From: a virus
UHGV virus genome: UHGV-0118720
Length of the DNA stretch: 11,455 bases
Direction: 5' to 3' (one strand)
The position numbers were made by a program, and so were the translations under genes. Shown here one piece after another: positions 7,448 through 10,758 of the stretch; position 1 is the stretch's first letter; every line of letters begins with the position of its first letter. The notes below the pieces were generated by a model. It had not been told where the DNA came from and made no database searches. It saw nothing but the letters and a program-made list of their open reading frames with translations.

Positions 7448-7552
7448 ATGCCGATTCAGCAACTTCCGCTTATGAAAGGTGTCGGCAAAGATTTCCGAAA
7501 CGCTGACTATATCGACTATCTGCCAGTGAATATGCTGGCAATTTTGATATAA
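7448..7552 (+). pseudogene. Truncated 5' remnant (34 codons) of the gp10-like tail-hub gene, displaced by the insertion
   Basis: RBS GAGG at 7437-7440, then [31 protein letters not shown] followed by ILI and a stop. The first 31 codons align codon-for-codon with the start of the full-length gene at 8121; similarity ends exactly at 7540/7541. Confidence 0.8.
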
Positions 7553-7553
7553 T
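7545..7553 (+). promoter_or_regulatory. Candidate extended -10 promoter element (TGaTATAAT) for the endonuclease gene
   Basis: TG at 7545-7546 and a perfect TATAAT at 7548-7553, about 36 nt upstream of the endonuclease ATG. No good -35 is seen, which extended -10 promoters often lack. Motif match only. Confidence 0.35.
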
Positions 7554-7588
7554 AAGTACATGAAAAATCGAAACTTTAAGGAGTAGAT

Positions 7589-8173
7589 ATGCTTTCTGAG
7601 AATGCTAAAGATATACCTGGATTTGAAGGTGTTTATGCCGTAACAGAAGATGGCAGGGTATATTCTCACTCACGTGTTGTTAAGGCTGCGCATGGCAGCA
7701 CGCAACTCAGAAAGGGGCGCTGGTTAAAGCCTAAAATCAATCAGGGAAGGGTGCTTTATAATATCGGAGCAAAATGGACTTTTGCCCATCGAATCGTTGC
7801 AATGACATTCCTGCCAAATCCTGAAAACAAGCCTCAGGTAAATCATATTGATGGCAATCCACTCAATAATAACGTCAATAATCTTGAGTGGTGCACTCAA
7901 AGCGAAAACATCAAACATGCATACGCCACCGGATTAAAGAAGCCAATCAAGTTTTTCGGAACCAAGCACCCAAAACACAAGTTGAGTGATGACGATGTTC
8001 TTGCAATCAAGTCATCAAAAGAAAGCTTGTCAGTAATTGCGGCTAAGTACGGGATATCTAAGACCTGGGCAAGTAGGCTAAAGCGTGATGCTAACTGGGT
8101 TCATATAAAGGTTGATTCCAATGGCAATACAACAACTACCACTAATGAAGGGATTGGGGAAAAGTGCGGTTAA
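7589..8173 (+). CDS. HNH homing endonuclease (NUMOD4-like N-terminal motif, HNH_3-type catalytic core, C-terminal HTH-like DNA-binding module)
   Basis: Own RBS AAGGAG at 7578-7583, 5-nt spacer. Motifs: IPGFEGVYAVTEDGRVYS (NUMOD4-like), HRIVAMTF...VNHIDGNPLNNNVNNLEWCTQSENIKH (HNH core), LSDDDVLAIKSSKESLSVIAAKYGISKTWASRLKR (HTH-like). The last 18 codons overlap the gp10-like gene start out of frame. Confidence 0.85.
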   Translation: MLSENAKDIPGFEGVYAVTEDGRVYSHSRVVKAAHGSTQLRKGRWLKPKINQGRVLYNIGAKWTFAHRIVAMTFLPNPENKPQVNHIDGNPLNNNVNNLEWCTQSENIKHAYATGLKKPIKFFGTKHPKHKLSDDDVLAIKSSKESLSVIAAKYGISKTWASRLKRDANWVHIKVDSNGNTTTTTNEGIGEKCG

Positions 8174-9539
8174 TGCTGATTATATAGACCAACTTCCAGT
8201 CAATCTTTTAGCTACGCCCAAGGAGGTGTTGAATTCATCGGGATATCTTCGCTCATTCCCGGGCATTGCAAAACGTTCTGATGTGAACGGTGTATCTCGC
8301 GGCGTCGAGTACAACATGGCGCAGAATGCTGTTTATCGTGTGTGTGGTGGCAAGCTGTACAAAGGAGAAAGTGAAGTCGGTGACGTTGCCGGAAGTGGTC
8401 GCGTATCAATGGCGCATGGTCGTATATCACAGGCGGTAGGGGTTAACGGGAAACTGGTCGAGTATCGCTATGATGGCACGATTAAAACCGTCTCAAACTG
8501 GCCTACAGACAGCGGATTCACGCAGTATGAGTTAGGATCAGTCCGCGACATTACGCGCTTACGTGGGCGTTATGCGTGGTCAAAAGACGGCACTGATTCA
8601 TGGTTTATCACTGACCTTGAAGACGAATCGCATCCTGACCGTTACAGCGCACAATATCGCGCAGAATCGCAGCCTGACGGCATCATCGGCATAGGAACAT
8701 GGCGAGACTTCATCGTCTGCTTTGGTTCATCGACGATTGAATATTTCTCCCTGACTGGCGCAACCACAGTTGGTGCTGCTTTGTATGTCGCACAGCCATC
8801 ACTGATGGTGCAGAAAGGCATTGCCGGGACTTACTGCAAAACGCCATTCGCTGATTCGTATGCGTTCATCAGCAATCCGGCAACAGGTGCGCCGTCTGTA
8901 TACATCATCGGCTCCGGTCAGGTGTCACCAATCGCCAGCGCGAGCATTGAGAAAATCCTCCGCTCCTACACTGCTGATGAACTGGCTGATGGTGTGATGG
9001 AATCGCTGCGATTTGATGCTCATGAGTTGCTGATTATCCACCTTCCGCGCCATGTTCTCGTGTACGACGCATCTTCAAGCGCCAATGGTCCGCAATGGTG
9101 TGTGCTGAAAACAGGTCTGTATGACGATGTGTACCGCGCTATCGACTTCATTTACGAAGGCAATCAGATAACGTGCGGCGATAAACTGGAGTCCGTGACC
9201 GGGAAATTGCAATTCGACATCAGCAGCCAGTACGACAAGCAACAGGAACACCTGCTGTTTACTCCACTGTTCAAAGCGGATAACGCCAGATGCTTCGATC
9301 TGGAGGTGGAATCATCCACTGGCGTAGCTCAGTACGCCGACCGCCTGTTCCTCTCTGCAACCACTGACGGCATAAATTACGGGCGTGAGCAGATGATTGA
9401 ACAGAATGAACCGTTCGTTTACGACAAGCGTGTTTTGTGGAAGCGTGTCGGGCGCATCAGGAAAAACATTGGCTTCAAATTGCGCGTTATCACGAAGTCA
9501 CCTGTCACTCTGTCTGGCTGCCAGATAAGGATTGAGTAA
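8121..9539 (+). CDS. Tail hub / needle-socket protein (P22 gp10-like), full length with a chimeric N-terminus
   Basis: 472 codons from ATG 8121; the ORF track's 8112 start is TTG and less likely. From about codon 32 ([19 protein letters not shown]...) to the end it matches my recollection of P22 gp10. The first 31 codons are a recoded variant of the upstream remnant. Confidence 0.9.
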
Positions 9540-10303
9540 TGGCGGATTCGAATCTCAATGTGCCGGTAATCATTCAGGCTGCACGGCTCGACACATCAGT
9601 CCTTCCACGCAATATCTTCTCGCAGTCGTATCTGCTTTACGTTATCGCACAGGGCACTGATGTTGGTAACGTGGCTAACAAGGCCAACGAGGCCGGACAG
9701 GGCGCTTATGATGCACAGGTCAGGAACGATGAGCAGGATGTGATTCTCGCTGACCATGAGCAGCGAATTTCTGCTGCGGAAGCAACGCTTGTTAATCATG
9801 AGGAGCGAATCAGCCAGGCAGAATCAACTCTTCAGGAACATGAAACGCGCATCGATGCTCTTGAGTATGCCACTACTCGTAAGAAATCAGAGGTTGTTTA
9901 CTCTGGCGTATCAGTAACAATCCCGACAGCGCCTACCAACCTTGTTAGCCTGCTGAAAACGCTCACGCCGTCATCCGGCACGTTGGCACCATTCTTCGAC
10001 ACCGTTAACAACAAGATGGTTGTGTTCAACGAGAACAAAACTTTGTTCTTCAAGCTGTCTATTGTCGGGACGTGGCCCAGCGGAACCACCAACAGGTCAA
10101 TGCAGCTAACATTTTCCGGCTCTGTTCCTGACACACTGGTCAGCAGTCGTAATGCGGCGACAACAACCGACAACATCCTGTTAGCTACGTTCTTCAGCGT
10201 GGATAAAGACGGATCTCTTGCCACAAATGGCAGTACGTTAACCATCCAGTCAAATGGTGCGGCGTTTACTGCCACAACCATCAAGATAATCGCGGAGCAG
10301 TGA
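9539..10303 (+). CDS. Tail needle protein (P22 gp26-like N-terminus and coiled coil, plus a C-terminal knob domain)
   Basis: ATG overlaps the gp10-like stop (TAATG). The N-terminus [18 protein letters not shown]...[14 protein letters not shown]...[13 protein letters not shown]...DEQDV matches my recollection of gp26. A short coiled coil with three 14-residue repeats is followed by a roughly 140-aa Thr/Ser-rich beta-type domain absent from P22 gp26. Confidence 0.88.
9755..9880 (+). repeat. Three tandem 42-nt (14-codon) repeats encoding the coiled-coil segment of the tail needle
   Basis: Units begin with CAT GAG/GAA at 9755, 9797 and 9839, encoding [14 protein letters not shown] / [14 protein letters not shown] / [14 protein letters not shown]. 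Confidence 0.55.
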
Positions 10304-10758
10304 TGATTCAGTTCAAACCAACGCGAAACATCGACCTGATCGAAGCAGTCGGAAATCACCCTGACATTATTGCCGGGAGCAACAACGGTGATGGATACGA
10401 CTACAAACCTGATTGCCGTTACTTTGAGGTGAACGTGCACGGGCAGTTCGGCGGCATTGTTTACTATCAGGAGATTCAGCCGCTGACATTCGATTGCCAC
10501 GCCATGTACCTGCCAGAGGTTCGTGGATTCAGCAAGGAAATCGGGCTGGCGTTCTGGCGATACATTCTGACTAACACCACCGTTCAGTGCGTCACATCGT
10601 TCGCTGCACGCAAATTCCGCCACGGTCAGATGTATTGCGCAATGATTGGCCTTAATCGTGTAGGAACCATCAAGAAATACTTCAAAGGCGTGGATGACGT
10701 GACGTTTTACAGCGCCACACGCGAAGAACTAATCGACTTCCTGAATCACGGGAGATAG
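10303..10758 (+). CDS. P22 gp14-like virion protein (assigned by synteny; function uncertain)
   Basis: About 151-aa ORF whose ATG (10303) overlaps the needle stop (TGATG); a GTG at 10300 is an alternative start. It sits between the needle and gp7-like genes, as gene 14 does in P22. No motif recognised. Confidence 0.55.
   Translation: MIQFKPTRNIDLIEAVGNHPDIIAGSNNGDGYDYKPDCRYFEVNVHGQFGGIVYYQEIQPLTFDCHAMYLPEVRGFSKEIGLAFWRYILTNTTVQCVTSFAARKFRHGQMYCAMIGLNRVGTIKKYFKGVDDVTFYSATREELIDFLNHGR

Follow-up and report, generated by a model that had tools for sequence, protein, structure and literature searches.

The question raised by this locus is how a tail needle that closely resembles that of Shigella phage Sf6 in its plug and knob came to have so short a shaft, and whether a needle of this kind can still serve a virion. 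The window, i.e. the whole stretch of 11,455 nucleotides analysed here, comes from a human-gut metagenome, and its positions 9539-10303 encode an Sf6 gp9-type tail needle, which belongs to a P22-like temperate phage or prophage (Lederbergvirus-type). The reading that we favour, at a probability of roughly 0.85, is that of an Sf6-type needle lacking one 84-nt cassette, with a shaft that acts as a mutable length module and a short form that is probably functional. The gene stands in the following setting:

8121..9539, plus strand: tail hub gene (orthologue of P22 gp10 and Sf6 gp8), 472 aa, docking partner of the needle, directly upstream (PF11134, 991 bits)
9539..10303, plus strand: tail needle gene (orthologue of Sf6 gene 9 and P22 gene 26; ORF, PDB and Pfam matches)
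10303..10758, plus strand: gp14-like gene (DUF2824), directly downstream of the needle (PF11039, 179 bits)
from 10761, plus strand: gp7-like ejection protein gene, next after the gp14-like gene (PF25688, read on the identical contig L004)

The reading frame is intact, with 254 codons and a TGA; at both ends it overlaps its neighbours, the ATG with the stop codon of the hub gene (TAATG) and the TGA with the start codon (ATG) of the gene that follows. This position between the gp10 tail hub and the gp14/gp7 genes is that of a P22-like late operon, and contig L004, which is 100% identical, carries gp4, gp10, needle, gp14, gp7, gp20, gp16 and then the tailspike in this order. Outside an 84-nt gap, the gene shares 95-98% nucleotide identity with genes annotated as 'tail needle knob protein', the name that databases also give to 254-aa copies. 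Family, structure and general length variation of these needles are already published, and the 254-aa needle is an ordinary protein of this known family, a rare allele with an unusually short shaft. Its parts are as follows:

9539..9724, plus strand: N-terminal domain, residues 1-62, a helical hairpin predicted to plug the gp10 channel (matches to 8EAP chain B, 5BU5, 2POH and 3C9I)
9725..9871, plus strand: predicted trimeric coiled-coil shaft, residues 63-111, 7 heptads (register analysis, AF2 monomer model)
9872..10300, plus strand: C-terminal knob, residues 112-254, a TNF-like jelly-roll equivalent to Sf6 residues 140-282 (3RWN, 4K6B, Foldseek)
10214..10216, plus strand: codon 226, Ser here and Phe in 18 of 18 aligned relatives (Sf6 F254; alignments)

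At the N-terminal end, the initial annotation had seen a P22 gp26-type tip in the first 60 or so residues, and this is borne out: residues 3-64 match 8EAP chain B, a 62-residue gp26 fragment built in the P22 tail (E 6e-27), and residues 1 to ~106 match the N-termini of the P22 gp26 and HK620 needles with E-values of 1e-37 to 5e-41 (5e-41 for residues 1-106 against 5BU5). Judging from the P22 and Sf6 literature, which also describes the hub-plug role of the N-terminus (PMC3741392; PMC9728967), the needle would act as a homotrimer, closing the tail channel and keeping the DNA inside. By analogy with the near-identical solved homologues, it is the hairpin of residues 1-62 that would plug the hexameric gp10 hub and hold the packaged DNA in the head.

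The following residues 63-111 would form a parallel three-stranded coiled coil projecting from the centre of the tail. The a/d heptad pattern, worked out on the sequence, is continuous from N63 to L108 and includes an N63-x-x-Q66-D67 polar layer as well as His73, His87 and His101 at heptad position d, a register that agrees with the Ca2+ site of gp26 with N at a and Q at d (PMC13580157). The AF2 model, a monomer of moderate confidence (overall pLDDT 69.5), has an unbroken helix over residues 42-112 with pLDDT >90 at residues 71-100. Counted as the 11 heptads of Sf6 (PMC3741392) minus the four that fall in a 28-residue gap, the shaft comprises 7 heptads and lies below the published range of 11-16, which is descriptive of the known members and not defining. 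In an infection, the needle is thought, by analogy, to reach the outer membrane after the tailspikes have worked through the O-antigen, and would then be expelled, opening the channel.

At the C-terminal end, a knob resembling those of Sf6- and HK620-type needles had been proposed, and the first half of this comparison stands. The Pfam profile PF16532 (Phage_tail_NK, 'Sf6-type phage tail needle knob') matches residues 85-254 with 345.4 bits (cut-off 27, E 6.6e-104) over profile positions 6-175 of 175, and the alignment of residues 102-254 with the knobs of Sf6 (3RWN) and HS1 (4K6B) is full-length, at E ~1e-88, with ~97% identity and ~4 differences. Foldseek with the predicted model returned the same two structures first (TM 0.81 on target), followed by PRD1 P5 and TNF-family folds, so that profile and structure comparison both match the domain to needle knobs. 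The PRD1 P5 vertex knob and the TNF/C1q-family jelly-rolls belong to the same trimeric jelly-roll fold class, a likeness already remarked for such knobs (PMC3741392), but their sequence identity is 11-16%, their TM 0.3-0.5 and their biological contexts are different.

The second half of the comparison, with HK620, has to be dropped. P22 gp26 (233 aa; 2POH, 3C9I) and HK620 gp26 (233 aa; 5BU5) share with the window's needle a homologous N-terminal plug, the first shaft heptads and the gene position, but end in a P22-type tip and carry no knob. A Pfam search with the HK620 protein gave no PF16532 match, and the alignments decay past residue ~106, for P22 gp26 just as expected from the earlier remark that it lacks this C-terminal domain. 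The C-terminus of the window's needle shows no convincing alignment to the P22 gp26 tip and has PF16532 instead.

In Sf6, the knob contacts L-glutamate through E146, K200, S248, D250, L255 and K277 and carries a distal S-R-N triad (PMC3741392). The equivalent residues E118, K172, S220, D222, L227 and K249 are all present in the window's needle, together with the triad S203-R204-N205. By analogy, residues 112-254 would fold into the distal knob, a TNF-like jelly-roll in which the glutamate-site residues are intact; the substitution F226S, private to the window allele, adjoins the glutamate-contacting Leu. The suggestion that the knob is an envelope-contacting tip is in keeping with the literature, which, however, gives the knob no receptor role: a knob swap left the host range unchanged and altered only the kinetics of DNA delivery (PMC3741392).

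Sf6 gp9 (AAQ12199.1, 282 aa; knob 3RWN) has the same architecture and gene position, ~97% amino acid identity over the aligned residues and likewise an N-terminal plug, an NxxQD layer, HExRI shaft units, a knob, the glutamate-site residues and the S-R-N triad. In contrast to Sf6 gp9, the window's needle is without Sf6 residues 101-128 (four heptads, 84 nt), leaving 7 heptads against 11, and has four knob substitutions including the private F-to-S at Sf6 position 254. The needle of the E. coli HS prophage HS1 (317 aa, 16 heptads; 4K6B) and the allele of phage vB_EcoP-720R6 are >97% identical to the window's in N-terminus and knob, whereas their shaft is 63 residues (9 heptads) longer, and its units have diverged in sequence and vary in number along a separate series.

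On the DNA level, the window allele corresponds to Sf6 gp9 without the 84 nt (28 aa or four heptads) that lie between CATGAAAC direct repeats. When it is aligned with Sf6 gp9, E. coli S10 and phage 720R6, as protein or as DNA, one clean, CATGAAAC-flanked 84-nt gap opens, and the missing cassette reads HETRIAQNESDI[A/S]SLDTRVQSLESQVSD (28 aa). The break falls inside the 8-nt repeat, which opens the cassette and recurs straight after it; the E. coli S10 allele has the two copies at 301 and 385. The features concerned are:

9839..9849, plus strand: deletion junction CATGAAACGCG (HETR), single copy; 282-aa alleles carry two, 84 nt apart (DNA alignment)
9755-9796, 9797-9838 and 9839-9880, plus strand: three 14-codon units (nucleotide identities 62, 48 and 38%)

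The loss is in frame and removes exactly four heptads, so that the a/d register is kept, and it would stem from slipped-strand or short-homology recombination. The junction pattern CAGGANCATGAAACNCGCATCGATGC (9833-9858) occurs once in the window, and in a set of 179 loci only those with the short form contain it; a scan of IMG/VR and JGI metagenome contigs gave 0 matches. Since most carriers are short-read draft or metagenome assemblies, we also considered the 254-aa gene as an artefact of short-read assembly in which the repeat had been collapsed. This explanation is barely credible and was rejected as the source of the deletion, because the flanking repeat measures 8-11 nt, far shorter than the k-mers of assemblers, the rest of the cassette is unique sequence, and independent assemblies of many samples, taken from ENA, Logan and NCBI, have the identical junction.

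The 14-residue units deserve a closer look, as the initial annotation had described three near-identical copies and had taken their number for a slippage-prone length module. Near-identity does not describe them: 9/14, 6/14 and 5/14 amino acids are common (26/42, 20/42 and 16/42 nt), and measured against a gene-wide background of 12.5 +/- 4.8 nt for 42-nt in-frame windows 42 nt apart, only units 1 and 2 stand out clearly. The third unit belongs half to the shaft and half to the knob linker, and is itself a product of the deletion junction. Tandem Repeats Finder, run on 9400-10450, detected no 42-nt array; the sole repeat that it reported in this interval is a weak one of 9 nt at 9668-9694.

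The idea of a length module itself holds with another unit. In the shaft sequences of the 120 best homologues, the cassette is found zero times in needles of 254 aa, once in those of 282, twice in those of 310 and three times in those of 338 aa, so the copy number is not invariant among relatives and shaft length does vary in repeat-sized steps. What is gained or lost in the window's lineage is the 84-nt (28-aa) cassette and not 42-nt units, and the window represents the zero-copy state. Single 14-aa (42-nt) units are also lost or gained by relatives elsewhere in the shaft (268 and 296 aa), and the HS1-type series runs through 268, 303, 317, 331 and 345 aa. Most needle lengths equal 254 plus multiples of seven (254, 268, 282, 296, 303, 310, 317, 324, 331, 338 and 345 aa), with a few off this quantum (285, 288, 298, 309 and 316 aa). 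That the cassette is present 0-3 times, and that the zero-copy state occurs on several backgrounds, suggests that the shaft behaves as a mutable length module. With the longest public alleles of 345 aa, equal to 20 heptads, the natural shaft range extends from 7 to 20 heptads and is wider than the one published. Further new points are that length variation in this needle lineage proceeds via gain and loss of the 84-nt cassette at the CATGAAAC repeats, and that the shortest state is found on several allele backgrounds.

How often the short form arose can be approached from its 11 distinct DNA alleles, which fall into ~7 groups (haplotype backgrounds). Each group differs by 5-20 of 762 nt from the nearest 282-aa allele and by 21-35 nt from the nearest other short group, and flanking haplotype SNPs on both sides of the junction are common to most short groups and their 282-aa counterparts. 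As the short groups are nearer to 282-aa alleles than to one another, the alleles suggest recurrent deletion, although short-patch gene conversion may be expected to leave the same pattern in these data. A deletion that arose once and spread by homologous recombination, with no recurrent slippage, is possible but on balance doubtful. Such a spread would suit the strong mosaicism of P22-like prophages, in which head, ejection and tailspike modules vary among loci with one needle allele, and the same junction sequence is present in all short alleles. However, this identity does not discriminate, because independent recombination at the same 8-nt repeat gives identical junctions. Moreover, short alleles have haplotype SNPs in common with particular 282-aa alleles to the left and right of the junction, with as few as 5-6 differences in 762 nt (L016 versus L031, L181 versus L063), and a single origin would need repeated conversion tracts within ~100 nt of the shaft.

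Whether arisen once or repeatedly, the short form is rare: none of 5,426 complete E. coli genomes and none of 50,697 deposited phage records has it, nor does IMG/VR, where each of the best 80 among 511 relatives measures 282 aa, and it was not found in JGI metagenome contigs. About 40 distinct short protein sequences compare with clusters that have 3,620 (282 aa) and 1,430 (317 aa) members. This rarity, including the absence from isolated phages, and the private F226S beside a ligand-contacting residue would be understandable if the 254-aa allele were a damaged needle in decaying prophages, the deletion being neutral or harmful and without a role in virions. We consider this unlikely, given that the deletion preserves the a/d register over exactly four heptads, that the ORF is intact in all 11 DNA alleles, and that the surrounding late operons are otherwise complete from terminase to tailspike. 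Both E. coli and Salmonella enterica subsp. salamae harbour the short form, whose carriers include the assemblies GCA_021913055.1, GCA_018013815.1 and GCA_019816225.1, and the modules around it vary, with at least three kinds of head module and tailspikes measuring from 589 to 724 aa. One short allele (copies at most 3 nt apart) recurs in mosaic backgrounds that differ in their head modules and ejection-protein genes, which implies transmission via viable recombinant phages. On these sequence grounds, we regard the short needle as probably functional. The pN/pS of 0.07 among short alleles was set aside as evidence on this point, because most of the divergence predates the deletions and the value is no proof of selection on the short form.

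In physical terms, the short needle is probably ~42 A shorter than that of Sf6, estimated from 28 residues at a rise of ~1.5 A. Bhardwaj et al. 2009, as cited in PMC3741392, reportedly tie needle stability to coiled-coil length, and a 7-heptad shaft might be less stable.

An adaptive meaning of the length differences appears improbable to us, namely that the cassette (0-3 copies) and the 14-residue HExRI units form a recurrently mutating length adjuster under selection, with the 7-heptad allele adaptive to certain tailspikes or host surfaces. If true, such an adjuster would set the projection of the knob relative to tailspikes and polysaccharide and thereby tune membrane sensing and DNA release. 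Slightly less probable still is a matching of shaft length to the tailspike or the surface polysaccharide, with short needles selected alongside short tailspikes. With each tailspike type counted once, the median tailspike measures 603.5 aa for 254-aa needles (n=8), 663 aa for 282-aa needles (n=47) and 687.5 aa for 317-aa needles (n=30), with Mann-Whitney p ~0.015 (254 versus 282) and 0.017 (254 versus 317) and a Spearman rho of 0.29 (p = 0.007), whereby cases and controls stem from different databases and are phylogenetically non-independent. Out of sample, two of four checks were as predicted (needles of 345 and 331 aa with tailspikes of 724 and 826 aa), but the other two were contrary (338 aa with 553 and 268 aa with 748), and rho drops to 0.25 (p = 0.017) once these pairs are added, which leaves a weak rank correlation overall. 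The coupling was not adopted because of these two contradictions. Furthermore, a 254-aa needle occurs with a 724-aa tailspike, 317-aa needles occur with tailspikes of 478-553 aa, one 604-aa tailspike type is common to 254- and 282-aa needles, and the number of residues is a crude measure of physical length. At first the short needle had seemed to go closely with a single rare tailspike of 643 aa, for which megablast gave no match in phage records or complete E. coli genomes; this association dissolved once further short alleles gave tailspikes of 589-724 aa.

Under the favoured reading of a mutable length module, the natural length series could be used to test what the reach and stability of the needle mean for the retention of DNA and the timing of its ejection in P22-like phages, a question left over from the knob-swap experiments (PMC3741392). 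As a minor point, an antisense ORF of 241 aa at 9898-10623 was dismissed as a gene because its frame has a stop codon in most relatives.

The ORF at 9539-10303 encodes an Sf6-type tail needle, a member of an already known family, and the initial annotation was correct in calling it a tail needle. It lies in a stretch of P22-like prophage late operon, and all 11,455 bases of the window recur with 100% identity in an ENA human-gut metagenome scaffold (L004) and in a Logan assembly contig (L006). The genes run in the order DUF2560, small terminase, large terminase, portal, scaffold, coat, a 62-aa ORF, gp4, an HNH/NUMOD4 gene, gp10 tail hub, needle, gp14-like (DUF2824) and gp7, and the longer contig L004 continues with gp20, gp16, an immI-like region, a 643-aa tailspike and an integrase. 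The needle gene overlaps both of its neighbours: its ATG with the gp10 stop, and its TGA with the ATG of the following gene.

9539-10303, + strand: needle ORF, 254 codons
9839-9849, + strand: single remaining copy of a short repeat in the needle shaft

A 241-codon antisense ORF (9898-10623, - strand) overlaps the knob-coding part of the needle gene and the gene after it; since most relatives have a stop codon in this frame, we rejected it as very likely no gene.

As previously proposed, the needle has a P22-type N-terminus: its first 106 residues align to the HK620 needle (5BU5, E 5e-41) and to several entries for P22 gp26 (E ~1e-37), and residues 3-64 also match the 62-residue segment of gp26 present in the P22 tail model (8EAP, E 6e-27). 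The suggested likeness of the C-terminal domain to an Sf6-type knob was borne out by both profile and structure searches. This domain scores 345 bits with Pfam PF16532, 'Sf6-type phage tail needle knob' (cut-off 27), and the crystal structures of the Sf6 gp9 (3RWN) and prophage HS1 (4K6B) knobs match residues 102-254 in a gapless alignment, with E ~1e-88 and roughly four substitutions. The AlphaFold2 monomer model (pLDDT 69.5) has a single long helix (42-112) and a beta-rich domain (116-253), and a Foldseek search of the PDB with this model placed 3RWN and 4K6B at the top, followed by PRD1 P5 and TNF/C1q-type folds. The knob also contains the distal S-R-N triad and all L-glutamate-site residues listed for the Sf6 and HS1 knobs (PMC3741392). 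The parallel drawn to HK620-type needles does not hold for the knob, as the HK620 needle carries a P22-type tip at its C-terminus instead of the Sf6-type knob; PF16532 was not found in it, and its similarity to our needle stops near residue 106. Besides, codon 226 (10214-10216) encodes Ser, whereas Phe (Sf6 F254) is kept in 18/18 aligned relatives; this codon directly precedes the Leu reported as a contact of the knob-bound L-glutamate.

In all close relatives from the phage and E. coli collections, the match to the needle gene is split in two and extends over 849 or 954 bp, versus 765 bp here. Alignment with Sf6 gene 9, the E. coli S10 prophage and phage 720R6 revealed a single clean gap of 84 nt, equal to Sf6 residues 101-128 (HETRIAQNESDISSLDTRVQSLESQVSD). 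In 282-aa alleles, this cassette starts with CATGAAAC(A)CG, and the 8-mer recurs 84 nt later, after the cassette, as CATGAAAC(G)CG. We set the heptad register with Ile/Leu on a and Ala/His on d; the missing stretch then amounts to exactly four heptads, d to d. N63 falls on a and Q66 on d, the NxxQD layer reported to bind calcium in gp26 (PMC13580157). As the published shafts comprise 11 heptads in Sf6 and 16 in HS1 (PMC3741392), the four-heptad deletion leaves 7 heptads in the 254-aa, cassette-free needle, compared to 11 in the 282-aa Sf6 gp9 with its one cassette. By our own estimate (~1.5 Å rise per residue), the shaft is about 42 Å shorter than that of Sf6. The window allele belongs to the shortest class seen, made by loss of a defined four-heptad cassette.

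The description of the coiled coil as three near-identical 14-residue (42-nt) units was too strong. Their nucleotide identities are only 62, 48 and 38%, with a background of 30 ± 11% across the needle gene, their amino acid identities are 9/14, 6/14 and 5/14, and Tandem Repeats Finder did not find a 42-nt array at the needle gene. Since the window keeps a single 8-mer copy at 9839-9849, where the 84 nt were lost, the third unit is a fusion across the deletion junction.

Nevertheless, the shaft is indeed a variable length module, and repeat number is not invariant. Among the best 120 of 2,481 needle homologues, most lengths equal 254 aa plus multiples of seven residues (254, 268, 282, 296, 303, 310, 317, 324, 331, 338 and 345 aa), with both cassette number and gain or loss of a 14-aa unit varying.

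Shaft changes and resulting needle lengths
28-aa cassette, no copy: 254 aa
28-aa cassette, one copy: 282 aa (Sf6)
28-aa cassette, two copies: 310 aa
28-aa cassette, three copies: 338 aa
First 14-aa unit lost: 268 aa
First 14-aa unit duplicated: 296 aa
Parallel HS1-type series: 268, 303, 317, 331, 345 aa

The series from 254 to 345 aa extends the natural range to 7 to 20 heptads, beyond the published 11 to 16. Lengths off this quantum are due to N-terminal extensions or internal duplication (285, 288, 298 aa) or to non-heptad indels in the shaft (309, 316 aa). Two homologues, P0002 (309 aa), with a 27-residue shaft duplication that is not a whole number of heptads and would disrupt their register, and P0023 (298 aa), with a doubled 16-residue segment in the N-terminal plug domain, may be defective or mis-assembled.

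The allele comparison drew on the needle genes of 184 sequences, of which 25 are short (the window and 24 loci), 85 encode 282 aa and 74 encode 317 aa. The short DNA alleles comprise 11 distinct sequences in about seven groups; over 762 shared nt, each group differs from some 282-aa allele at 5-20 positions and from any other short group at 21-35. To either side of the junction, most groups also share diagnostic SNPs with their own 282-aa counterpart. The data fit independent losses, apparently repeated at the same short repeat. It is also possible that one original deletion spread through short-patch gene conversion.

Several observations speak for a working short needle. The deletion keeps reading frame and heptad register, the ORF is intact in all short alleles, and the surrounding late operons look complete. 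Short needles occur in E. coli and Salmonella enterica subsp. salamae; the terminase/coat modules found with them are of at least three kinds, gp20 and gp16 come in several variants, and the tailspikes measure 589, 597, 600, 603, 604, 605, 643 and 724 aa. One short allele (≤3 nt apart) is present in different mosaic backgrounds, implying passage through viable phages. The low pN/pS of the short alleles (0.07) mostly reflects divergence older than the deletions and so does not count in favour. Against a working needle stands its rarity, with ~40 distinct short proteins versus thousands of 282- and 317-aa forms. The short form is absent from 50,697 phage records and from 5,426 complete E. coli genomes, in which all junction-spanning matches were two-piece, 178-bp ones. 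In IMG/VR, the best 80 of 511 relatives are all 282 aa long, and junction pattern scans had no match there or in JGI metagenome contigs.

By homology to P22 and Sf6, the N-terminal hairpin would plug the gp10 hexamer and keep the DNA in, and the coiled coil would hold the knob out from the tail centre. After O-antigen processing by the tailspikes, the needle would contact the outer membrane, and its release would open the channel for ejection proteins and DNA (PMC3741392, PMC9728967). Since published knob swaps left host range unchanged and altered K+ release kinetics (PMC3741392), the knob is more aptly called a delivery modulator than a receptor-binding protein.

The first short needles fetched all adjoin one rare 643-aa tailspike, a tie that we rejected when further short alleles broke it. 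Per tailspike type, needle and tailspike lengths show a weak positive rank correlation (rho 0.29, p = 0.007); four out-of-sample checks were split two for and two against, giving rho 0.25 (p = 0.017, n = 89) when added. Clear counterexamples exist, and a coupling of the two lengths is improbable. The 643-aa tailspike (L004 18000-19931, downstream of the window on the same contig; also L010-L014) is 99% identical across five prophages with different head modules, and its receptor-binding part has no megablast match in the 5,426 complete E. coli genomes or the 50,697 phage records.

Homing-endonuclease-like genes seem to insert often into the late operon of these phages. A free-standing HNH/NUMOD4 gene (ORF 7589-8173) sits inside the 5' end of the gp10 gene (window 7448-8240), downstream of a 34-codon remnant of a P22-type gp10 start (ORF 7448-7552). 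The full-length 472-aa gp10 (start 8121) begins with another, diverged copy of the remnant codons (24/31 aa and 61/93 nt identical), which overlaps the 3' end of the HNH/NUMOD4 ORF. In three related loci lacking the insert (L015, L016, L022), gp10 directly follows gp4. In several related prophages (L002 5939-6454, - strand; also L011-L013), a different HNH endonuclease gene separates the scaffold gene from the coat gene and is encoded on the other strand. Finally, a 2013 survey reported Sf6-type knob needles only in Escherichia and Shigella (PMC3741392); we also found them in Salmonella enterica subsp. salamae (L015, GCA_002035805.1) and Klebsiella phage phiKp_30 (LC768498.2).
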